Below are positions 7,181 to 62,719 of a stretch of DNA of 64,000 nt, piece after piece. The notes beneath the pieces are model-generated. The model did not search any database and was not told the DNA's origin. It was given only the letters and a program-made list of their open reading frames with translations. The position numbers were made by a program, and so were the translations under genes. The DNA comes from an uncultured Jannaschia sp. (lineage in GTDB: Bacteria > Pseudomonadota > Alphaproteobacteria > Rhodobacterales > Rhodobacteraceae). The stretch is taken from the NCBI GenBank assembly GCA_947494145.1, contig CANLTZ010000018.1, positions 28,849 to 92,848 on the forward strand, written 5' to 3'. Each line of letters opens with the position of its first letter. Position 1 is the stretch's first letter.

Positions 7181-8050
7181 TCATCCGGCGAATGGCACTT
7201 GCGGCACGCCCCGATAGCCCAGGCCAGAAATCGCGTGCAGGCTGCCCGCTTCGGGTTGGCCGGTGGGATCGTCGACCCCAAGGGAGGTGAAGTAGAGGAT
7301 GTCCAAATCGCCGCCCCCGAACATGGGCTTTGACGGTTTTTCGACGGGGACGTCGATGGTGTGCAAAATGTCCCCCTCGGGGCTCCAACGGTAGAGTTGC
7401 CAGCCCTCGATTCCAGCCTGCCAATAGCAGCCCTCCGCATCGACGGTGCCACCATCGGGGCGGCCCGGCAGCCCGTTGGTATCTTTGAATATCTTGGCCT
7501 CACCTGGCGTGCCCGAAGCGCCATCATAGGGTGCGGTCCAGATGGTGCGGATCGGGGCTTTGCTGTCGGAGAAGTACATGCGGGTGCCATCGGGCGTGAA
7601 GGCGAGGCCGTTGGCGGTATAAATCCCATCGCGCCAAAGGGTCACCTGGCCATCGGGGTCAAGGCGGTAGAAGGCGCCTGCGGCTTCGGGCTGGCCGCCT
7701 TCTTTCATGGACCCGGCCCAGAAACGCCCCTGTCGGTCGGTGGTCCCATCGTTAAAACGATTGTCAGGCAGATGGGCTTCGGGATCGTGGATCGCTTCGC
7801 GCGCGCCGGTGTCGGGATCGAACGTCCAAAACCCTGATTTTGTAGCCAAAACCAGGCCGCGCCCGACACGGGGGGCCAGGCAGCCCACGGGTTCAAACCA
7901 GTCGTGGCAGCGGTTTTCACCCGTCCTGGGATCAAAGGCGAAGATCAGACCTGCCGGGATATCGCACCACCACAGAAGGCCGGTGCGGTCGTCCCAGACG
8001 GCGCCTTCCCCAACCTTCGAGCGTGTTGCTGCGACGCAGTCTATCTTCAT
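7181..8050 (-). CDS. SMP-30/gluconolactonase family lactonase
   Basis: GEGAVWD, NRFNDG..DRQGRFW.G, ANGLAF, PDGGTVDAEG motifs. Confidence 0.85.
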   Translation of the reverse strand: MKIDCVAATRSKVGEGAVWDDRTGLLWWCDIPAGLIFAFDPRTGENRCHDWFEPVGCLAPRVGRGLVLATKSGFWTFDPDTGAREAIHDPEAHLPDNRFNDGTTDRQGRFWAGSMKEGGQPEAAGAFYRLDPDGQVTLWRDGIYTANGLAFTPDGTRMYFSDSKAPIRTIWTAPYDGASGTPGEAKIFKDTNGLPGRPDGGTVDAEGCYWQAGIEGWQLYRWSPEGDILHTIDVPVEKPSKPMFGGGDLDILYFTSLGVDDPTGQPEAGSLHAISGLGYRGVPQVPFAG

Positions 8051-8215
8051 GTGCCCCCCATATTGCCGCAACGATACTCGGCCAGCAGGCGCAAAACCAG
8101 CGGGTGAGGTCCACGGGCTGAGGCATCCATGCCGGAGAGTATTCTTTCGGTCCTGCCTTCCGCGACGGTGGCTCGGCGGGTTATGGGGTCCGCGCCCGAC
8201 CTTCGGAGAGCCCCC

Positions 8216-9478
8216 TTGTCCAATACGTCCCCCAAGACCCGCATCGCTGATATTCGCATCACGCCCATTGCCTTTTACGACCCACCGCTTCTGAACAATG
8301 CCGGGTGTCACCAACCCTTTGCGCTACGCTCCGTCATCGAAGTGGAGACCGAAGGGGGCGTGATTGGCTTGGGCGAAAGTTACGGCAATCGCGGGGTCAT
8401 CGATGGCGTTGAGGCGGTGGCGACCGCGCTGCGCGGGCTTGATGTAACCGACATTCATGGGTTGGCGGCACGGGTGAAGGCGTCGGTGCCCGAACAGGTC
8501 GAGGGCTACAATACGGGCGCAGGCAGCCGGAACCTCCGGGTATGCGGCGCCATCGAAGTAGCGATGTGGGATGCGCTTGGCAAAACGACGGGGCACCGCG
8601 TCTGCGACCTGCTGGGGGGCCATGTGCGGGCACACGTGCCTTTTTCGGCCTATCTGTTCTACAAGTTCGGCCAGCATCCCCATGAAGGCGCGCCTGATGC
8701 TTGGGGCGAAGTCCTGACGCCCGAGCAGTTGGTGGCGGAAGCGCATCGGTTCCGCGAACTGGGTGGCTTTGAGGCAATCAAGCTGAAGGGAGGCATCTTG
8801 CCGCCCGAAGATGAAATCGCGGGGTTGGAGGCGTTGCGCGCGGCTTTCCCCGACGCCCCGCTGCGCATCGACCCCAATGGCGGCTGGACGGTCGAGACGA
8901 CGCTGAAACTGCTGCCACGATTGGAAGGGTTGATCGAGTATCTGGAAGACCCCTGTGTGGGGATCGAAGCCAACGCCCAGGTGCAAGCCAAGACGCATAT
9001 CCCTTTGGCGACAAACATGTATGTCGTGCAGCCTGCCCATGTTGCGCCTGCCATCCGGCAGCACGCGTTCCGCGTCATCCTGTCGGATCACCACTATTGG
9101 GGCGGTTTGCAGGCCAGCCGGACCCTTGCGGCCACCTGCGCGATCTGGGGGCTGGGTCTGTCGATGCACTCCAACTCTCACCTGGGGATTTCGCTCGCTG
9201 CCATGACCCATCTGGCGGCGGCCACACCCAATCTGACCTATGATTGCGACACCCATTACCCCTGGCAAACGGATGACGTGATCGAAGGTGGGCGGTTCAC
9301 CTTCCAAGGCGGCGGGCTGACCGTACCAGAGGGGCCAGGACTTGGCGTGACGCTAGACCGCGCGGCCTTGGCACGGTTGCACCAGAATTACCTCGATTGC
9401 GGCTACACCGCGCGCGATGATGAGACAGAGATGCGCAAGCATTGGACGGATTGGACGTTTCAGCGCCCTCGGTTCTGA
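8216..9478 (+). CDS. Glucarate dehydratase-related enolase-superfamily protein
   Basis: FSAYLFYK, KLKGG, RIDPNGGW, EYLEDP, ATNM, SMHSNSHLGISL, DTHYPW; TTG start chosen from the GGAGAG RBS (ORF track starts at 8129). Confidence 0.8.
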   Translation: MSNTSPKTRIADIRITPIAFYDPPLLNNAGCHQPFALRSVIEVETEGGVIGLGESYGNRGVIDGVEAVATALRGLDVTDIHGLAARVKASVPEQVEGYNTGAGSRNLRVCGAIEVAMWDALGKTTGHRVCDLLGGHVRAHVPFSAYLFYKFGQHPHEGAPDAWGEVLTPEQLVAEAHRFRELGGFEAIKLKGGILPPEDEIAGLEALRAAFPDAPLRIDPNGGWTVETTLKLLPRLEGLIEYLEDPCVGIEANAQVQAKTHIPLATNMYVVQPAHVAPAIRQHAFRVILSDHHYWGGLQASRTLAATCAIWGLGLSMHSNSHLGISLAAMTHLAAATPNLTYDCDTHYPWQTDDVIEGGRFTFQGGGLTVPEGPGLGVTLDRAALARLHQNYLDCGYTARDDETEMRKHWTDWTFQRPRF

Positions 9479-9581
9479 CACGCGCGATTTCCAGTTGCTT
9501 TTTTGGCGCGCGCAAAGAACAGTGTAAATCAACGTAAATATCGTGCGCGCTTGAACAGGCGCCAGGGAATTCGACTTCGCA

Positions 9582-10613
9582 ATGTCCGAGACTAAGATCA
9601 GGAACATGCAGGACTTCGCGGATGCCAGCGGCATTTCGCGTCCGACCGTGTCAAAGTATTTCCACGACCCCGACAGCGTGCGGCCGACGACGCGTGCCCG
9701 CATCGAAGCGGCGTTGGAGCGCTACGATTACCGGCCCAACATCTTTGCCATGAACCAGAACCGGAAGCTGACCAAGAATGTGGGCATCGTGGTGCCCTAT
9801 CTGGCAGACCCGTTCTTTGCCGAACTCGTCCGCGTGATCGAGCGGCGCTGCATCAATGCAGGGTTTTCGCCGTCGCTTTTCAGCTCCCACGGGGAGCCGG
9901 CGCTTGAATGCGATATCCTTGACACATTGCGGTCACTGAAACCCGCGGGCGTGCTGCTGGCCCCCCTTGGACGCGGGTCTGACAAAGGGGCGATCGAGCG
10001 CTTTGCGAGGGATGTGCCCACCGTGTTGTTCGACAGCAATATAGAAGGGTTAGGGGCGGCCTTTGTCGGCTCGGATAACTTTAGCTTCGTCTCGCAAACT
10101 GTTGAATATCTGTCGCGAACGGGGGAAACGCCCTGCTTTTTTGAGATGCGCAACCCCGCGAACCCGAACGCCAACAAGCGCCGGAATGCCTATTTTGCAA
10201 CGATGGAGCGTCTTGGACTTTCACCCAATGTGGTGGCCATCGACGGCACGGGTTGGGAGTTTGAGGAAATTGGACGCCAAGGAGCACTTCAAGCCATCGA
10301 ACAAGGCACCCTGCCGTCGTCGACGGTACTATGCAGCAATGACCGCCTGGCCATCGGCTTTTTGTCAGCCTGCTACGAAAAGGGCGTTCGGGTTGGACGC
10401 GAGGCCGAGTGCGACATGCGCGTCGCATCCCATGACGACCACCCGTTTTCGCGCTTTACCTGCCCATCGCTCACGACCGCAGCCCACGACTACACTGCTG
10501 TCTCCGACTACGCGGTCGAGACGCTCTTTCGGTTGATCGAGGGGGGCCGCGCCTCTGGCGACCGGCCCGAGACGCTCTTTCCAGCCCGGTTGATCATGCG
10601 GGACTCTGCCTGA
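9582..10613 (+). CDS. LacI-family transcriptional regulator
   Basis: N-terminal HTH SGISRPTVSK, YRPNIFA hinge, periplasmic-binding-like C-domain; upstream of the polyol operon. Confidence 0.9.
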   Translation: MSETKIRNMQDFADASGISRPTVSKYFHDPDSVRPTTRARIEAALERYDYRPNIFAMNQNRKLTKNVGIVVPYLADPFFAELVRVIERRCINAGFSPSLFSSHGEPALECDILDTLRSLKPAGVLLAPLGRGSDKGAIERFARDVPTVLFDSNIEGLGAAFVGSDNFSFVSQTVEYLSRTGETPCFFEMRNPANPNANKRRNAYFATMERLGLSPNVVAIDGTGWEFEEIGRQGALQAIEQGTLPSSTVLCSNDRLAIGFLSACYEKGVRVGREAECDMRVASHDDHPFSRFTCPSLTTAAHDYTAVSDYAVETLFRLIEGGRASGDRPETLFPARLIMRDSA

Positions 10614-46735: not shown

Positions 46736-47053
46736 AACAATACCTCTCGCTGAGGCGTGTTCGGGCATGTCTGGCGGTCGTTTCTCTCGTGCGGATTCGA
46801 TCGCGCCACATCGTCGTGTTTTGCTGTGGCCTCTAGCGTTTACTTTGGGAGCCGTATTGCAACAAAGCGATGCGCAAATATTCCAATGGGCCATAGATTT
46901 ACAGGATGCTGCTCACAGATCCCGTCGCAGTCGACCGTGCGGTCTGACACAACGGCAACGGTCATTGGCAAATCACTCCGAGCAACATGCTGTAAGCCCG
47001 CCAGTGTCAATAAGACTGTACACGGATGACATTGCAAAGCTCGCACCAGGACA

Positions 47054-47905
47054 ATGCGGGGACTCGAATCTATGCTTCAGATCAGAAATGAAGATTTCGT
47101 CAGCACGGCGTATGAGGGCAAAAGATATTCTCTCTTTGTGCGCCGACCGGGCGCCTATCACATCGATATTCCGCCGGACCGCCACTTCCTCGACATTCAG
47201 GTTGGACCGTCGGATGCGCTCTATGAAATCACGGGTAAGGATGACGACGATGGCAGAGCGCCGCCATCGAGTTTCGTCTTTCTGCCGTCCGGCAGCGCCA
47301 CCGAGATCAAGACCTCCCGCACCGCCTGGAGTGTACAGGTCGCGTTCGATCCCGACGCGATTGGGTGCGTGGATCGAGAAACGTCAGCCCTCCGAGCGCT
47401 TGTCCACGTTCGCGACGACTTCATGGCCAGTCTCGCGCAGCAACTGGCTTGGCAGGATTGCTCCGAAGCCTTGAGCGATGCGCAGATCGACGCGATCTGC
47501 AAAGTCCTTCTGACCCGAACAGAACAGCATCTGATGCAGACGGTCCCGCAGCTGCCATGCAGAACCGCACCTGCGAAACGAATTCAGGCTGTCCTCGACC
47601 ATATCGATGAGGATGTGTCCGCACCGCACGGACTGATGGACCTCGCGGAAGTCGCTGGCCTCAGTCCATATCATTTCTCCCGGGTCTTTCGGGCCGCCAT
47701 GGGACAAAGTCCCTGCCAATACGTCCTCGAACGGCGGATCGTCGAAGCTAAGCGCCGTCTCGACCAATCGGAAGAATCCATTGCCGCGATCGCCTATGAT
47801 TGTGGGTTCGGCTCGCAGAGCCACATGACGAGCGTCTTCACAAAACTGGTCGGGATCACGCCCGGGAAACTGCGGCGGCAGGCATCGCGCGAGCCAGCAT
47901 CATAG
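47054..47905 (+). CDS. AraC-family transcriptional regulator
   Basis: LAEVAGLSPYHFSRVF and IAYDCGFGSQSHMTSVF double HTH. Confidence 0.88.
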   Translation: MRGLESMLQIRNEDFVSTAYEGKRYSLFVRRPGAYHIDIPPDRHFLDIQVGPSDALYEITGKDDDDGRAPPSSFVFLPSGSATEIKTSRTAWSVQVAFDPDAIGCVDRETSALRALVHVRDDFMASLAQQLAWQDCSEALSDAQIDAICKVLLTRTEQHLMQTVPQLPCRTAPAKRIQAVLDHIDEDVSAPHGLMDLAEVAGLSPYHFSRVFRAAMGQSPCQYVLERRIVEAKRRLDQSEESIAAIAYDCGFGSQSHMTSVFTKLVGITPGKLRRQASREPAS

Positions 47906-55388: not shown

Positions 55389-57380
55389 ATGACCAAGCGA
55401 CAAACGACACCCGCCACCGCGATCCTCTGGGGTCAGATTGTCATCGTTTCGATCGTCGCCCTCGCGTTCGTCTGGACCGCGACCCAATGGGTGGCCTTCC
55501 GGCTCGGCTTCCAATCCGAACTCGGCGAACCAATGGCCTCATTCCTGGGTCTGCCGATCTACGCGCCCTGGAACGTCTTCGTCTGGTGGTACTGGTACGA
55601 CGCCTACGCGCCGCGAGTCTTCATGGAAGGGGCGATCATCGCCGGTGCGGGCGGTATCGCCGCAGTTGCCGTTGCCATTTTCCTCTCAGTCCTGCGCGCC
55701 CGCGAGGCGAGCGACGTCACGACCTATGGCTCCGCCCGCTGGGGCACTGAGACCGAGATACGTGAAGCGGGCCTGCTGGTCGAGGATGGCGTCGTGCTCG
55801 GCCGCTACCAATCCCGCTATCTCCGTCATGACGGCCCGGAACATGTGCTCTGTTTCGCGCCGACGCGATCCGGCAAGGGTGTCGGACTCGTCGTGCCGTC
55901 TCTACTGACCTGGCCCGGGTCGGCGATCGTCCACGACATCAAGGGCGAGAACTGGCAGCTTACGGCCAACTATCGTTCCCGCTTCAGCCGGGTGCTGCTC
56001 TTCGATCCAACCGATCCGACCTCGGCGGCCTACAATCCGCTGCTCGAAGTGCGGCGCGGCGACAGTGAAGTGCGCGACGTCCAGAACGTCGCCGATATCC
56101 TGGTCGATCCCGAAGGTTTGCTCGAACGGCGGAACCATTGGGAAAAGACGAGCCACTCGCTCCTGGTCGGTGCAATCCTGCATGTGCTCTACGCCGAGGC
56201 AGACAAGACCTTGGCGGGGGTCGCGGCGTTCCTCTCCGATCCGAAGCGGTCGATCGAGAAAACCCTCGCCGCGATGATGCGCACGCCGCATCTTGGGGAT
56301 CGACCGCATCCGGTCGTGGCGCAGGCGGCCCGCGAACTTCTGAACAAATCTGAGAACGAGCGGTCGGGCGTGCTCTCGACCGCGATGAGTTTTCTTGGGC
56401 TCTATCGAGATCCGGTGGTCGCCAAGGTCACATCGCGCTGCGACTGGCGCATCGACGATCTGGTCACCGATGATCGTCCGGTGACGCTCTATCTCGTGGT
56501 CCCGCCATCCGACATCTCGCGCACGAAGCCGCTCATCCGTTTGGTGCTCAACCAGATCGGCCGTCGATTGACCGAAGATCTGCATGCAAACCGAAAGCAT
56601 CGTGTGCTCCTCATGCTCGACGAGTTCCCGGCGCTCGGTCGTCTCGATTTCTTCGAAAGCCAGCTCGCTTTCATGGCGGGCTACGGCATCAAGGCGTTTC
56701 TCATCGCCCAGTCGCTGAACCAGATCGAGAAGGCTTACGGGCAGAACAATGCCATCCTCGACAATTGCCATGTCCGCGTCGCCTTCGCGACCAATGACGA
56801 GCGCACGGCCAAGCGGGTCTCCGATGCGCTCGGGACCGCGACCGAGATGCGCGCGATGAAGAACTATGCCGGGCATCGGCTATCCCCCTGGCTTGGGCAT
56901 CTGATGGTCTCGCGCCAAGAGACGGCGCGGCCGCTGCTCACCCCAGGTGAAATGATGCAGCTGCCACCGACCGACGAGGTAGTGCTGGTCTCTGGTTCGC
57001 CGCCAGTGCGGGCGGAGAAGGCGCGCTATTACGCCGATCCGCAGTTCAAGGCCCGGATCGGTCCGCCGCCTGATCAAAGCACCCCTGAGAAAGTCGCAAG
57101 CGTCGCGAAAGACGATTGGAGCGGCAGCGCGCCGATAGCCGCGCCGCCGCTCCAAAAACGAAAACCCGGAGAAGACAACGCAGATGGCGGCATCCGCCGT
57201 GAACCCGATCTGCCGGAACATGAGGACATCGCGCCCGATCCGGCGCCCGCGCGTAGCGAGTTCGCCGATCTCGACGACGACCCGGATGACGATGCGCAGC
57301 GAGCGAAAGCCATGCGCGACCGGTTCGGGACCGTCGCGCGGCAAGCCTCGCTCGATCCCGATGACGGGATCGAGCTGTGA
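55389..57380 (+). CDS. traG: Type IV coupling protein TraG/VirD4
   Basis: FAPTRSGKGVG, HDIKGENW, MLDEFPALG, LIAQSLNQ. Confidence 0.93.
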   Translation: MTKRQTTPATAILWGQIVIVSIVALAFVWTATQWVAFRLGFQSELGEPMASFLGLPIYAPWNVFVWWYWYDAYAPRVFMEGAIIAGAGGIAAVAVAIFLSVLRAREASDVTTYGSARWGTETEIREAGLLVEDGVVLGRYQSRYLRHDGPEHVLCFAPTRSGKGVGLVVPSLLTWPGSAIVHDIKGENWQLTANYRSRFSRVLLFDPTDPTSAAYNPLLEVRRGDSEVRDVQNVADILVDPEGLLERRNHWEKTSHSLLVGAILHVLYAEADKTLAGVAAFLSDPKRSIEKTLAAMMRTPHLGDRPHPVVAQAARELLNKSENERSGVLSTAMSFLGLYRDPVVAKVTSRCDWRIDDLVTDDRPVTLYLVVPPSDISRTKPLIRLVLNQIGRRLTEDLHANRKHRVLLMLDEFPALGRLDFFESQLAFMAGYGIKAFLIAQSLNQIEKAYGQNNAILDNCHVRVAFATNDERTAKRVSDALGTATEMRAMKNYAGHRLSPWLGHLMVSRQETARPLLTPGEMMQLPPTDEVVLVSGSPPVRAEKARYYADPQFKARIGPPPDQSTPEKVASVAKDDWSGSAPIAAPPLQKRKPGEDNADGGIRREPDLPEHEDIAPDPAPARSEFADLDDDPDDDAQRAKAMRDRFGTVARQASLDPDDGIEL

Positions 57381-57404
57381 GGCGCCCGGGATGAGGAAGG
57401 CTAG

Positions 57405-57815
57405 ATGAAGAAGGAGCGCCTCAATGTGTATTTCGACCCGTCACTCAGTGCCGAACTCGACGTGCTCGCGGCACGGCGGAAGGTCTCCAAGTCGCAGATC
57501 GTGGAGGCGGCGCTCGCATCGTTCCTTTCGCCCGATGGAGCCGATCAACGCGAGGCGGCTATTGTCCGGCGGTTGGATCGGCTGACCCGGGCGGTCGAGC
57601 GCCTTGAGAGGGACCAGTCAATCGGCAACGAAGCCGTCGCACTGTTCGTGAAGTTCTGGCTCACCACAACGCCGCCATTGCCGGACGACATGCGCGAGGC
57701 GGCGCAGGCGTCAGGCAAAGAGCGATATGGCGGGTTCCTAGAGACGCTGGGGCGGCGGCTGGCGAAGGGGCGCACGCTGACGAAGGAGGTTTCAGAGGAC
57801 CGCACGCCACGTTGA
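57405..57815 (+). CDS. CopG/ribbon-helix-helix protein
   Basis: RLNVYFDP...SKSQIVEAALASFLSPD; typical position after traG. Confidence 0.8.
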   Translation: MKKERLNVYFDPSLSAELDVLAARRKVSKSQIVEAALASFLSPDGADQREAAIVRRLDRLTRAVERLERDQSIGNEAVALFVKFWLTTTPPLPDDMREAAQASGKERYGGFLETLGRRLAKGRTLTKEVSEDRTPR

Positions 57816-57983
57816 AAAGAATAAGTAATTCAGACTTTCGAGCACCAAGGCACTCAGCCGAACAGACCCCTCGAGCAAGATTATGTAAGGCGCGGCGACG
57901 GGTTTGTGCTATCAAGAACCAGTCTATTTGAAAGCCTTTCTGGGAACTGAAGGGGTCGCGAGAGCAGAACGGCGGGAGCGCAT

Positions 57984-58865
57984 ATGGCAACACAAGCGAG
58001 CTTCGCCGACTGGTACAAGCAGGCTTATGCCGGTTTCCCGCAGGAGCATCGCGGCGCCGGAGCGTCTGGGCTGAAGATGTTATTCGTTGAGCAGGAAAGC
58101 CACGAGAGCGTCGATGAAATGGGCGATTTTCACTGTATCGCTCTGGTGACGCGCTATGATGGCCCGCCTAGTCTCTGGGATTTTGGCGATGGTAAGCGGC
58201 GCGCGGACTTCACTCCAAACACCCTGTCAATCCAGCCCGCCCAAAGCGCTCCCCGCATGGCCATTGAAGGGAGACATGATATCCTCGGAATCACCTTCGC
58301 AAATGATGCGATGGAGAGGTTCCTCGGTGAAGCGACACCCGGATCTGGGATTTTTGATGCGTTAACTAGAGACGTGATTTTCCGCGACCGGGAAACCCGC
58401 CATCTGATACTTTCACTCTGGGACACGGCTGCGAAAGACGGGCCCATGGCAGGCATCAAGACTGATAGTCTGTTTCAGCTTCTTTTAATCCGTCTGATTG
58501 AGCTATCCGGGGAAGCGGTAGACGAGAGCACCGCAGGTCTATCTCAGGAGCAGATCGCCAAGGCTTGCGCCCTGATAGAGGACCGGCTCAGCGAAGGCTT
58601 AAGTTTGCCCGAAATCGCTGGCGAAGTCGGTGTTTCTCCCTTTCACTTCGCTCGGCAATTCAAGGCGAAGACCGGCGATACGCCCCATGGCTACGTAATG
58701 GAACGCCGCCTAGCGCGGGCAAAGGATGCGCTGCAGCATAGCCGCGATCCGATCGCCGATATCGCGTATGCCTGCGGTTTTTCCAGCCAACAGCATATGA
58801 CAACGGCTTTCTCGAAGAATCTTGGCGTGACGCCGGCACGCTATCGGCGCGAGGTCAAAGCATGA
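57984..58865 (+). CDS. AraC-family regulator, tandem copy 1
   Basis: SPFHFARQFK and GFSSQQHMTTAF double HTH; N-terminal FADWYKQAY motif. Confidence 0.9.
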   Translation: MATQASFADWYKQAYAGFPQEHRGAGASGLKMLFVEQESHESVDEMGDFHCIALVTRYDGPPSLWDFGDGKRRADFTPNTLSIQPAQSAPRMAIEGRHDILGITFANDAMERFLGEATPGSGIFDALTRDVIFRDRETRHLILSLWDTAAKDGPMAGIKTDSLFQLLLIRLIELSGEAVDESTAGLSQEQIAKACALIEDRLSEGLSLPEIAGEVGVSPFHFARQFKAKTGDTPHGYVMERRLARAKDALQHSRDPIADIAYACGFSSQQHMTTAFSKNLGVTPARYRREVKA

Positions 58866-59743
58866 CCACACGAGCGAGTTTCGCCGACTGGTACAAGCAG
58901 GCCTATGCCGGTTTCCCGCAGGAGCATCGCGCCGCGGGGGCGTCCGGGCTTCAGATGTTCTTTGTCGAGCAGGACAGCCACGACAGTATCGATGAGATGG
59001 GCGATCATCACCTCCTTGGTCTGGTCGCCTCAGCAGAGGCGGATCGATCATTCTGGGATTTTGGTGACGGAAAGAAAGAAGTCGCCAACAGCGCTAGCGC
59101 ACTGGTGGTCCAGCCAGCGCAAAGCGCTCCACGTATGATGGTTGACGGCAGACATGATGTCCTCGTCATGACTTTTCCCGATGCCGTCCTGGGCAGATTT
59201 CTGGGTGAAATGACGCCAAAGGCAGGGGTTTTTGATGCGTTGACGGATTACGTTCTTTTTCGCGACCGCGAAACTCGGCATTTCATGCTGTCGCTTTGGG
59301 ACACGGCTGCGAAAGACGGGCCCATGGCAGGCATCAAGATCGATAGCCTGTTTCAGCTCCTGATTGTCCGGCTAATCGAGCTGTCCGGGCAAGCGTTGAC
59401 GAGGAGTACCGCGGGACTATCCCAAGAGCAGATCGCCAAGGCCTGCGCTCTGATCGAAGACCGGCTCGGCGAAGGGTTGAGCCTGCCTGAGATCGCTGGT
59501 GAAGTCGGCGTGTCTCCCTTTCACTTCGCTCGGCAATTCAAGGCGAAGACCGGCGATACGCCCCATGGCTACGTCATGGAACGCCGCCTGGCGCGGGCAA
59601 AGAATGCGCTGCAGCATAGCCGCGATCCGATCGCCGATATCGCGTATGCCTGCGGTTTTTCCAGCCAGCAGCATATGACAACAGCTTTCTCAAAGCATCT
59701 TAGGGTGACGCCGGCACGTTATAGAAAAATGGCGACGGCGTGA
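58862..59743 (+). CDS. AraC-family regulator, tandem copy 2 (recent paralog of copy 1)
   Basis: Only 4 differences from copy 1 over the 107-aa STAGL..ARYR segment; ATGA overlap. Confidence 0.9.
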   Translation: MTTRASFADWYKQAYAGFPQEHRAAGASGLQMFFVEQDSHDSIDEMGDHHLLGLVASAEADRSFWDFGDGKKEVANSASALVVQPAQSAPRMMVDGRHDVLVMTFPDAVLGRFLGEMTPKAGVFDALTDYVLFRDRETRHFMLSLWDTAAKDGPMAGIKIDSLFQLLIVRLIELSGQALTRSTAGLSQEQIAKACALIEDRLGEGLSLPEIAGEVGVSPFHFARQFKAKTGDTPHGYVMERRLARAKNALQHSRDPIADIAYACGFSSQQHMTTAFSKHLRVTPARYRKMATA

Positions 59744-60627
59744 CCGCGCAGCCGGCAACCCAATTCGCCGCTTGGTACAAGGAAGCCTATGGCCGCTTCG
59801 CGCCGGAAGTCGCGACGCCCGGGCACTTGCCTTTCGATGTGTTTCATGTCCGACAGGACTCGCATGGCGAGACCGACGAGATGAGCGATGTACTCTGCAT
59901 TGGTCTCGTCAAAGCGCCGATATCGACTCATGTAAAACTCGATATGGGCCATGGCTGGGTGTCAGGGCGCATTTCGAAACCCGGATTGAGCTTCCAGCCA
60001 TCCCATTCCAACGTGGCTTTCGATATCGATGGCCGTCATGACTTAACTATCGTCAGTTGTTCCGAACGTGTCGTTGCCTCGGTTTTCGGAGACGACGCGC
60101 CGCCGCTTTCAAACCTCGATGTGCTGACCCGCGACGTGACCTTCGGCGATACCGAACTGCAGGATGGTATCGCGGCCCTCTGGCGCACGGTGACACGGGG
60201 CGGACCGACGCAAGCGCTGAGGGCTGACGCCCTCTTTCAGATCATACTGGTCAGACTGTTTCAATGTGCCGATGGGCTGCGTCCCGGCAGCGCTCACGTG
60301 CTTTCCGATGCAACGCTCAGCCGTGTGGTCTCGCTAATGCATGCGGGCATGACCGATGGCGTCACGATAGGCAAATTGGCGGCCGAAGCGGACCTACCGC
60401 CTTGGCAATTCACGCGCAGCTTCGAGGCGACGACAGGTCGGACCGTGGATGCGTTTCTTGCCGAGAAGCGGCTTGATCAGGCCAGTCGCATGCTGGCCGA
60501 TACCAATGCGCCAATCCCCATGGTGGTTCGGGTTTGCGGCTTTTCCAGTGAGCAGCACCTGGCGGTCACTTTCGCCCAGACACTTGGCGTTAGCCCGGAA
60601 CGCTATCGCCAGGAGAAACGCGCGTAG
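59740..60627 (+). CDS. AraC-family regulator, tandem copy 3 (divergent)
   Basis: FAAWYKEAY N-terminal motif, GFSSEQHL HTH2; GTGA overlap. Confidence 0.85.
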   Translation: MTAQPATQFAAWYKEAYGRFAPEVATPGHLPFDVFHVRQDSHGETDEMSDVLCIGLVKAPISTHVKLDMGHGWVSGRISKPGLSFQPSHSNVAFDIDGRHDLTIVSCSERVVASVFGDDAPPLSNLDVLTRDVTFGDTELQDGIAALWRTVTRGGPTQALRADALFQIILVRLFQCADGLRPGSAHVLSDATLSRVVSLMHAGMTDGVTIGKLAAEADLPPWQFTRSFEATTGRTVDAFLAEKRLDQASRMLADTNAPIPMVVRVCGFSSEQHLAVTFAQTLGVSPERYRQEKRA

Positions 60628-60730
60628 CGAATGCGTCGATGCTCGAAGTATTCGAGCTTTACTACGAGGGACGGGGGAGCAGCGGATAGCGGGCGCTCAC
60701 TTAAGCAACACCACCAATCGGAGACCCATC

Positions 60731-61396
60731 TTATCTCAGTGGCAGGTCCACCTGCCAGGCCATGCCGCGGTCGCGCTCCAACAATTTCATGCGCCCGCAT
60801 GCGTCCGCCGTAAACTCGCGCATGAGCCCCATCCCGCGATCCCGTGCGCTTGGCGGAATACCGGGATACCCCTTGCCATTATCCGCGACGGTCAATCTGA
60901 TCGTACCTGGTGGCAGCTCTGTTACGGACACCTTTATTTCGCCAGCTTCGTGCTCATCAAACCCATGCCTGAGGGCATTGGTGATCAGTTCGCACAGAAT
61001 GAGGCCGATGGTCTGAGCCTGAGCAACCGGCAACTCGTCCGTGTCACCGATCACGAGATCGATGTCGGGACTGTCATGGATCGTCTTCAGATGCGCGCCC
61101 AGGGACCCGATGAAGTCCCGGGTCGCGTCGGACTGTGGCGTTTCACTGTACAGCAGGCGCTGCACGAAGGCGATTGCTGCGACGCTGCGCTGAACCATCC
61201 GAAGGGCTGCGAGCGCCGTTTGCTGATCCGCGCCGTTCAGGATTTCGCGCTCAGAGCGCCGGGCGAGACAGGCGACCGTCTGCAGGCTGGATCCGATCCG
61301 GTGACTGAACTCGCGAAAACATGGGTTGTCCGTCTCATCGACGGCCAAGGTTCTGACCCCGAGCGGGCTTCGGATTTTGATATCCCCGTGCATCAT
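60731..61396 (-). CDS. Sensor-less HisKA_2/HATPase histidine kinase
   Basis: H-box EFSHRIGSSLQ, N-box ELITNALRHG, G1 DNGKG, G2 GMGL; 221 aa. Confidence 0.75.
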   Translation of the reverse strand: MMHGDIKIRSPLGVRTLAVDETDNPCFREFSHRIGSSLQTVACLARRSEREILNGADQQTALAALRMVQRSVAAIAFVQRLLYSETPQSDATRDFIGSLGAHLKTIHDSPDIDLVIGDTDELPVAQAQTIGLILCELITNALRHGFDEHEAGEIKVSVTELPPGTIRLTVADNGKGYPGIPPSARDRGMGLMREFTADACGRMKLLERDRGMAWQVDLPLR

Positions 61397-61735
61397 CCTG
61401 TGAGTGGTATCACGCTGCGCTTCTCACTCTTCCAAACAGGCCAGTTTTTACATCTGCTTGCTTCTCTGTGGGGTGCATCGCGTTCCGTCGCTGACGGCGA
61501 AACCGCTTCAAATTCCCTAATTCCGTATCTCAATTATCCCTTGTCCAAGTAGGAAGCGCCTTCAATAGAAGGTTGCCTTTTGTAGATGACGGTCTCTGAG
61601 CATGTGGCGACTGATGTAGCTCTGGCGCATTTCCCTGCCGCTCTACGACGCCCCACTACTACGCCCCAAAACCTGTTGCTGATCGTCCAATAACGGTCTT
61701 CTTGATCGACCCCGTAACCAGATGCGGGGCCGCGA

Positions 61736-62719
61736 ATGACCGTCCACACTCTCAAATCAGCAGCGATCGAGCGCGGTTCCCGCATGCTCCGCACGGCGCT
61801 TGGGGCCGATATCGCGACCTGGCTCGACGAGGACGCCGTCGTCGAAGTCATGCTCAATCCATGCGGACGCCTCTGGGTCGACCGGATCGGCGAGGGTCTC
61901 TGCGATACAGGCGCCACGCTTACCGCCGACGATGGCGAGCGGATCGTTCGACTCGTCGCCCATCATGTCGGCGCCGAAGTCCATGCGGATGCGCCACGAG
62001 TATCCGCCGAGCTACCCGGAACCGGCGAGCGCTTCGAGGGACTGCTACCTCCAGTCGTCGCCGCGCCCACTTTTGCGATCCGCAAGCCCGCCGTCGCCGT
62101 TTTCACGCTCGACGATTATGTCCGCGCTGGCATCTTGGATGAGATCGCCGCCGACGCACTCCGCGAAGCGATTGCGTCCCGCGCCAACATCCTCGTCGCC
62201 GGCGGCACATCGACGGGAAAAACCACGCTCACCAACGCACTGCTCGCCGAAGTGGCCAAGACTTCCGACCGCGTGGTGCTGATTGAGGACACGCGCGAGC
62301 TGCAATGCCTGACGCCCAATCTGGTCGCGCTCCGCACCAAGGATGGCGTCGCAACCCTGTCTGATCTCGTCCGCTCGTCGCTCCGCCTGCGTCCGGATCG
62401 CATTCCCATCGGTGAGGTGCGCGGGCCCGAGGCGCTCGATCTCCTCAAAGCCTGGGGCACCGGCCACCCGGGCGGCATCGGGACGATCCATGCGGGTTCG
62501 GCAATCGGGGCACTGCGCCGTCTCGAACAGCTCATCCAAGAGGCCGTCGTCACCGTCCCGCGCGCCCTGATCGCAGACACAATCGATGTTCTCGCGGTCC
62601 TCAAGGGCCGCGGTGCCGACCGCCGCCTTGCAGACCTCGCTCGCGTCACCGGTCTCACCGCCGAGGGCGACTATGCGCTCAAATCCCTTCTCACCAACCC
62701 GAAAGGAAACGCCCCATGA
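61736..62719 (+). CDS. trbB: P-type conjugative transfer ATPase TrbB
   Basis: [35 protein letters not shown]. Confidence 0.95.

Follow-up and report, generated by a model that had tools for sequence, protein, structure and literature searches.

In a 64,000-nucleotide stretch of DNA from an uncultured Jannaschia sp. (contig CANLTZ010000018.1, positions 28,849 to 92,848; hereafter the window), three genes for AraC-type regulators (A1, A2 and A3) lie in tandem between a copG-family ribbon-helix-helix (RHH) gene and trbB, two backbone genes of an integrative and conjugative element (ICE). The first two encode proteins with an almost identical DNA-reading head, which differ mainly in their N-terminal domains. 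The question raised by this locus was what such a combination means: a switch by which several ligands reach one regulon, as a first-pass annotation had proposed, or the trace of another history; and, with it, on which genes these regulators might act. The reading favoured here, with somewhat more confidence than doubt, is that of a rare self-regulating cargo module, composed of a recombining AraC array and a sensor-less histidine kinase as its apparent target, in which the likeness of A1 and A2 is a gene-conversion mosaic and the parts are joined by a shared promoter box (coordinates in Table 1).

The gene calls, the 4-nt overlaps between the A1, A2 and A3 reading frames (ATGA at the first junction, GTGA at the second) and the dual helix-turn-helix (HTH) domains agreed on three coupled AraC genes between the RHH gene and trbB. 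PF12833 matched A1, A2 and A3 with 87, 84 and 61 bits (cut-off 33.6), and PF00165 matched as well. The motifs and identity counts quoted in the first-pass annotation for the three copies were all reproduced by alignment: residues 7-23 (FADWYKQAYAGFPQEHR) were the same in A1 and A2, 4 of 16 residues were shared in the block 49-64 and 1 of 12 in the block 72-83, and the differences in the HTH region (182-287) were limited to S203G, D248N, N279H and G281R, with identical recognition helices. A3, at 34% identity, retained WYKEAY and had altered recognition helices.

The proposal built on this pattern was a multi-input OR-gate, in which different ligands bound in diversified cupin pockets drive one regulon and A3 is a heterodimer partner or modulator. 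In its favour, A1 and A2 were both intact and coupled in one operon, their differences were concentrated in the cupin-type domain, and the identical recognition helices went together with purifying selection on the first HTH motif (HTH1) despite saturated synonymous divergence (dS). The head, however, proved to be partly a product of gene conversion. Between A1 and A2, dS was 0.57 for residues 1-47 and 0.81 for residues 133-181, reached 2.7 and 1.8 in the variable blocks (residues 48-83 and 100-132), was 1.58 in HTH1 (182-217, where nonsynonymous divergence, dN, was 0.013) and fell to 0.145 in the second HTH motif (HTH2, 218-287), for which dS against the corresponding gene of a sister ICE on contig C8 was 0.95 and 0.79. 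Synonymous differences were unequally distributed between HTH1 and HTH2 (Fisher p = 6e-6), and dN/dS for the whole A1/A2 gene pair was 0.19. Sites informative for A1, A2 and the C8 gene favoured A1=A2 in nucleotides 631-861 of the gene (window 58614-58844; 29:4:6), A1=C8 in nucleotides 481-630 (4:9:22) and A2=C8 in nucleotides 142-399, a three-sequence incongruence with a chi-square p of 2.6e-9 for segment boundaries set after viewing the data.

Paralogues closer to each other than to orthologues, low dS and sharp boundaries, as expected of interlocus gene conversion, were all found in HTH2. HTH2 was homogenised by interlocus gene conversion, with further recombination patches elsewhere in the gene, and HTH1 was kept by strong purifying selection; the head shared by A1 and A2 is due to the combination of the two. 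The description of the copies as having the same head and different sensors therefore stands as far as the near-identical DNA-binding domain and the concentration of differences in the N-terminal cupin-type domain are concerned, but the appearance is mostly old divergence patched by gene conversion and not a demonstrated multi-ligand switch.

The age of this divergence was apparent from the sister ICE in the same genome (C8, 541-35455), whose DNA was 85-90% identical to that of the window ICE (96% in the ICE backbone, as noted for the copG flank). Its cargo consisted of two AraCs and the kinase only, and it had its own copy of the fourth AraC gene of the ICE (A4). The first AraC of the sister ICE aligned to both A1 and A2, and the second was 86% identical to A3. 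In the maximum-likelihood tree, A2 grouped with the first C8 gene (support 96/92), A1 was placed separately with the genes of loci L019 and L011, and the A3 clade was sister to the A1/A2 ("A12") clade (95/98). Since A2 went with the C8 gene and A1 stood apart, A1 and A2 are not a recent duplicate; as far as the sequences tell, one regulator, the A12 type, exists here in two old versions and is single in other ICE variants, and A3, a paralogue of greater age, has another DNA-reading head. The presence of two related ICEs in one genome offers ample opportunity for recombination between elements. Locus L019 is a decayed ICE remnant in an uncultured Erythrobacter (7467-9634), in which copG was broken into two frames, an A1-type AraC was intact with its own box, A3 was truncated at about residue 251, and neither kinase nor trbB was found within 7467-9634; with this remnant the module has crossed orders (Rhodobacterales versus Sphingomonadales).

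The AlphaFold2 model of A1 (mean predicted confidence, pLDDT, 94) comprised strands over residues 20-106, helices over 107-177 and the HTH domain. Foldseek related the model to ToxT, Rns, CsvR, CuxR, BgaR and the AraC N-terminal domain (E 3e-10 to 1e-5), and its HTH superposed on the DNA-binding domains of MarA, AdpA and AraC at 1-2 Å root-mean-square deviation. A1-A3 share with AraC, ToxT, Rns/CsvR, CuxR and BgaR the jelly-roll barrel, the helical region and the C-terminal dual HTH, but belong to a rare subfamily whose N-domain was matched by no Pfam (AraC_binding included) or NCBIfam model.

Residues 48-132 of this N-domain were 31-62% identical in amino acids among all orthologues, with 62-96% in the flanks, so that the segment was hypervariable in every orthologue and not only between A1 and A2. 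The regional dN/dS check gave no positive-selection signal (0.18-0.23 in the variable blocks, with saturated dS). Of the 42 A1/A2 differences in the segment, nine were at family-wide hydrophobic positions and mostly conservative swaps; the radical replacements fell mainly in the hairpin/loop segments 57-62 and 72-80 and in helix 107-111, at positions hydrophilic and of high entropy across the family. Because the blocks were hypervariable in all orthologues and the radical changes lay mostly in hairpins and loops, the evidence leans towards the scenario that the first-pass annotation had itself named as contrary to its proposal, neutrally evolving surface loops, and the variable blocks of the model would be surface variation rather than diversified sensor pockets. 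The most conserved polar residues of the family (R23, Q37, D44 and D66) were identical in A1 and A2, and should they make up the ligand site, a common ligand is conceivable. In the helical part of the two proteins (residues 133-181), identity was 82%, so heterodimers would be equally possible and the logic not purely that of an OR-gate, and A3, with its different head, is the constant member of the array. With these points on the other side, the OR-gate is considered an unlikely explanation.

A survey of the kind called for by the first-pass annotation found that tandem arrays with homogenised 3' ends recur. Two translationally coupled AraC arrays of the same subfamily were found elsewhere in the same genome (C24:3136-6672, four genes; C26:28804-30578, two genes); their N-domains were about 20% identical, and their last ~190 nt, from TPHQYV, were mostly 85-100% identical per 33-nt window (lowest 79%), with a sharp boundary. 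A Rhodobacteraceae AraC pair (L022) showed the same homogenised 3' ends and an in-frame stop in one copy. The recurrence of different N-domains with a shared C-end in the family is a further point for the OR-gate. The mosaic divergence, sharp tract edges and incongruent phylogenetic signal are those of interlocus gene conversion and concerted evolution in tandem arrays in general, but, unlike the usual case, the homogenised tract of the AraC arrays was repeatedly the HTH2-coding 3' end, in independent arrays. The conserved ...RKEVR tail, as read from the sequences, encodes AAGGAGGT a few bases 5' of the next start codon. The genes around the C24 and C26 arrays looked, by eye, like those for a glutathione S-transferase, an isochorismatase-family hydrolase and an aldehyde dehydrogenase, and the sequence just 5' of the first gene resembled a degenerate remnant of another 3' end.

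These arrays also bear on a second explanation, near-neutral redundancy, according to which the extra gene came from unequal crossing-over, either between ICE variants or between adjacent paralogues of an array prone to recombination, A1 and A2 are functionally equivalent, and the variable segment is a drifting surface of low constraint. Copy number did vary (three versus two genes in the sister ICEs, four versus two in C24 and C26), and the gene-conversion mosaics, the in-frame stop in one L022 copy, the truncated A3 of L019, and the radical changes at loop-like positions, with a dN/dS near 0.2, are all compatible with it. Against this, A1 and A2 remained intact after a dS of about 0.8-2.7, and their whole-gene dN/dS was well under 1. 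The two block types also recurred across lineages (HCIAL..R.D, that of A1, in other lineages; HLLGLVA..EADRS, that of A2, in the C8 gene), which argues for maintained variants and not decay. Redundancy of this kind is thought improbable, to about the same degree as the OR-gate.

The N-domain family, recognisable by the motif F..FY...Y..FPQEHR ... D.GDG, was rare: clustering at 50% identity left 97 clusters out of 1.8 billion representatives. In a sample of 400 genomes from the class, it was present in the window's own and in three more (about 1% of the sampled alphaproteobacterial genomes), and was often tandem where present; no close homologues were found in 200 other genomes of the same bacterial family, and the sole plasmid-borne match was an AraC of 28% identity in Roseobacter denitrificans. 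NCBIfam models of the named AraC families (RhaS, FtrA, Rob and others) gave sub-threshold, HTH-level matches only and hence no equivalog, and PADLOC returned no defence-system matches for A1, A3, the kinase or A4. No RNA runs holding the array sequence were found; one aquatic metagenome DNA run had a 13% word share. The array had not been recognised as a described system in the first pass, and this impression held: full-text searches of the literature turned up neither a module of AraC and HisKA_2 genes nor gene conversion in AraC arrays. Adjacent AraC paralogues are familiar from rhaS-rhaR and gadX-gadW of E. coli, where they form a small autoregulated regulatory cascade. The arrays described here resemble these pairs as neighbouring paralogous AraC regulators, but comprise three or four translationally coupled genes in copy numbers that vary between sister elements, have HTH2 3' ends homogenised in nucleotides, and include two members with identical recognition helices.

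As to the genes on which the array might act, the first-pass annotation had stated that no target gene was adjacent, and had missed the convergent kinase gene; a shared box was found before the array, the kinase gene and A4, which makes candidate targets adjacent to the array likely on sequence grounds. Each of the seven A12 orthologues had the box, GAGCAAGATTRTGTAAGG, about 95 bp ahead of it, in a leader that was otherwise unalignable. In six of these leaders TG(C/T)TAT followed with constant spacing, and the sister ICE had TGCTAG. Because this conserved -10-like element lies 18 nt downstream, the box is inferred to cover the -35 position of a putative array promoter. Upstream of the kinase, the arrangement GCAA(G/T)-N4-TG-N-AAA ... 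TG(G/A)AAGA was conserved in the window, the sister ICE and loci L020, L021 and L050 (four lineages). In the 4.9-Mb genome, the 18-mer of the array promoter (0-1 mismatch) was unique apart from the sister ICE. On both strands, GCAAG-N4-TGTAA had seven sites, of which the array and kinase promoters in the two ICEs accounted for four, and AGCAA-N5-TGTAA also had seven, of which six belonged to the array, kinase and A4 promoters of both elements; these counts refer to a box derived from A12 leaders. No host targets of the box were identified in this search, in which the looser pattern added the kinase and A4 promoters and one or a few scattered sites.

Class II AraC-type promoters have a binding site that overlaps their -35 region, as the candidate box of 17-18 bp would at the putative array promoter. 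The marbox of MarA, SoxS and Rob contains GCAC and AAA elements 7 bp apart. As a lead only, the box has a similar two-element layout (GCAA, 7 nt, TAAG), about the same length and a single asymmetric site; it differs from the marbox in sequence, and A1-A3 are full-length two-domain AraCs and not MarA-like monomers.

From these elements a circuit may be proposed. A12-type proteins would bind the marbox-like AGCAA-N5-TGTAA over the -35 of the array, kinase and A4 promoters, and since the three promoters share the box, A1 and A2 would share their sites of action; they might function there as independent inputs or as heterodimers, either being possible with a helical region of such identity. Control by the A12 proteins would in this way extend to their own operon (and hence A3), the kinase and A4 as a self-contained circuit, with output passing through A3, A4 and a transcriptionally gated kinase to host partners. 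The suggestion that copy 3 is a heterodimer partner or modulator gives way here to a simpler one: constant, older, presumably co-transcribed and provided with a different head, A3 would more simply be a downstream output.

The kinase itself consists of a HisKA_2 and a HATPase_c domain, preceded by only ~28 residues before the domain for dimerisation and histidine phosphotransfer (DHp); no further Pfam domain was found, and hence no sensor domain. The best Pfam match of its ATPase domain was HATPase_c_2, of the anti-sigma-kinase type. His31-Arg32 was conserved in relatives, and His31 together with the N, G1 and G2 boxes was invariant in six of them. Identity between the window and C8 kinases was 93%. 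PhyK and LOV kinase were the best, weak NCBIfam matches. Alphaproteobacteria commonly have orphan HWE/HisKA_2 kinases whose receivers are distant. The window kinase resembles those of the PhyK/LovK type in its HisKA_2 DHp and HATPase domains, its cytoplasmic nature and the lack of an adjacent receiver, but has only 221 aa, has no sensor domain, is borne by an ICE, lies behind an AraC-type box, and carries the H-box HRIGSSLQT in place of the usual HRVKN motif. Kinases of the PhyK/LovK type act in the alphaproteobacterial general stress response (PMC5964349, PMC10359499).

Kinases closely related to that of the window were very rare and stood beside AraCs wherever flanking DNA could be seen; among the 400 class genomes, only generic kinases of 30-34% identity and longer open frames were found. 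The kinase adjoined AraCs of the A12 clade in L021 and in both the window ICE and its sister, and a related AraC in L050; in L013, a more distant kinase adjoined A12. Its neighbours were AraC genes in all contexts seen, with no adjoining response regulator. In Erythrobacter ani (L020, 8001-14106), an A12 orthologue was convergent with a 712-aa TPR-HisKA_2 kinase, and the short kinase (71% identical to that of the window) lay ~2.5-2.6 kb from A12, heading an operon with two distant AraCs and the box upstream. In L050 (4950-6603), a kinase orthologue (61% identical) preceded a distant AraC that shares the N-domain family of the array, with a box-like element before each; the genes upstream carried the Pfam domains of EgtB (DinB_2 and FGE-sulfatase) and EgtD (Methyltransf_33) and are presumably ergothioneine genes.

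A third explanation starts from this association, and holds that the sensor-less kinase acts directly on the AraCs, by phosphorylation or by binding in the manner of an anti-activator, without any receiver. The linkage in several unrelated contexts (kinase-AraC-AraC with distant AraCs in L020, kinase-AraC in L050), the position of its few close relatives beside AraCs wherever flanks were available and its anti-sigma-kinase type of ATPase domain all fit such a pairing, as does the failure to detect a receiver domain in the window by CheY tblastn, a search of low sensitivity. The shared promoter box, however, already accounts for the linkage as that of regulator and target. Both the His-Arg of the H-box and the boxes for ATP binding resemble those of an ordinary HisKA_2 kinase, for which distant receivers would be nothing unusual; the kinase remained highly conserved between the two ICEs while the variable segment of the AraCs differed; and A12 also occurred without the kinase in L019 and, within the flanks examined, in L011. 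Direct action on the AraCs is accordingly regarded as very unlikely.

Several points weigh against the favoured reading of a self-regulating module, the same CheY result among them. A simple scan of 57300-61900 found no match to the sigma-70 consensus, the distance from box to -10-like element was 18 nt at the array promoter and 11-13 nt at the kinase promoters, and the box could be bound by A4 or by a host factor. On the side of the sensor domain, residues 100-132 of A2 compared with the C8 gene gave a dN/dS of 0.99, the saturated dS of the variable blocks means that diversifying selection may still be possible, and the placement of these blocks at the surface rather than in the pocket was judged from secondary structure and family hydropathy, not from coordinates.

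The position of the array in the ICE raised a further possibility, namely that the array senses conditions and regulates the trb mating-pair genes or excision. Its backbone was identified by TraG (PRK13876, 1185 bits; cut-off 674), TrbB_P (425.7 bits), CopG (RHH_1) and an RlxS match of 557.8 bits, under the cut-off of 850; the order of the RlxS/TraG/Trb (MPF-T) backbone, including copG, was the same in 29 related genomes. In the Agrobacterium plasmid pAtK224b, copG is directly followed by trbB, with 135 bp between them, and the final ~115 bp 5' of the window trbB (about 61620-61735) aligned with this spacer, in agreement with the view of the first-pass annotation that the AraC genes were inserted; the insert thereby delimited measures 3.8 kb (about 57816-61620). 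A role in transfer would be consistent with the way in which this insert parts traG-copG from trbB, with a convergent kinase gene that would stop read-through, and with the box before A4, near the ICE regulatory region. On the other hand, the native 115-bp trbB leader was intact and had no box. The copG-trbB gap of related ICEs of the same order measured 0.16, 2.0, 2.3, 2.8, 3.8, 7.5, 12.4 and >17 kb and presumably contained unrelated cargo, with the window AraC in none of the other gaps (L081-L090 included). The slot is therefore a general cargo hotspot, and the module is cargo and not transfer machinery. In the examined flanks of the A12-kinase loci L020, L021 and L050, copG, traG, trbB and rlxS were not found. 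Because the slot is a hotspot, the trbB leader is intact and the module is also present at loci with none of the tested backbone genes in the flanks examined, a dedicated role in trb control is unlikely and a specific effect of the array position on trb, as the first-pass annotation had suspected, is not indicated; control of transfer as the function of the array is rated highly improbable.

Two observations were made at the right end of the insert. The ~115-bp trbB leader (61620-61735), conserved out to the Agrobacterium plasmid, has a hairpin and a T-run at 61681-61698, and trb operons may have in it a conserved element for regulation in cis. Opposite the kinase gene, the forward strand has a 367-aa open reading frame (60449-61552); in DNA this rich in GC, it is very probably spurious.

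Table 1. Features of the insert and its flanks, in window coordinates.
Feature	Position	Strand	Basis or remark
Candidate third box copy, CGAGCAACATGCTGTAAG	46979..46996	+	58 bp upstream of the fourth AraC gene of the ICE (A4, 47054-47905)
copG-family ribbon-helix-helix gene	57405..57815	+	PF01402 RHH_1; left flank of insert, ICE backbone
Candidate AraC-type box, GAGCAAGATTATGTAAG (AGCAA-N5-TGTAA)	57873..57889	+	~95 bp upstream of copy 1
Extended -10-like element, TGCTATCAA	57907..57915	+	18 nt downstream of box
AraC copy 1 (A1), 293 aa	57984..58865	+	cupin-like barrel ~20-106, helical region 107-177, dual HTH 188-292
Hypervariable segment of A1, residues 48-132	58125..58379	+	orthologue identity, dS
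HTH2 tract of A1 homogenised with A2	58635..58844 (A2 counterpart 59513-59722)	+	regional dS, informative sites
AraC copy 2 (A2), 293 aa	58862..59743	+	orthologue of the one A12-type gene in the sister ICE (C8)
AraC copy 3 (A3), 295 aa	59740..60627	+	older paralogue; recognition helices different; GTG start overlaps A2 stop
Sensor-less HisKA_2 + HATPase_c histidine kinase, 221 aa	60731..61396	-	PF07568, PF02518, PF13581; convergent with array
Candidate second box copy, AGCAAGCAGATGTAA	61448..61462	-	52-66 bp upstream of kinase start; then conserved TGGAAGAGT (61426-61434)
Native trbB leader, kept right of insert	61620..61735	+	aligns with copG-trbB spacer of pAtK224b
trbB, P-type conjugative ATPase	61736..62719	+	TIGR02782, 425.7 bits (cut-off 304.55); right flank

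A more far-reaching version of the module hypothesis may be considered for the whole subfamily. As a "sensor-cassette" system, its nearly identical HTH2 3' ends would be recombination handles by which divergent cupin sensors are duplicated, deleted and swapped onto a common head, and the amount of the dedicated kinase, not its activity, would relay the output of A12. On this assumption, which is held to be quite unlikely, mobile elements would gain fast-evolving combinatorial arrays of one-component sensors, in which the 3' ends often encode the Shine-Dalgarno sequence of the next gene.

Returning to the favoured self-regulating module, the locus provides a direct experimental handle in the conserved box and identifies the copG-trbB slot as a cargo hotspot in this ICE family. 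It also calls for caution, as a conserved head combined with a variable sensor can stem from gene conversion and a hypervariable segment, and is by itself no proof of diversified pockets. The homogenisation of HTH2 against diverging sensors suggests how such arrays could keep one DNA specificity and explore new inputs. If the circuit is real, a mobile element imports with it a self-contained sensing module, in which the AraCs set the level of a sensor-less kinase that could plug into host phosphorelays.

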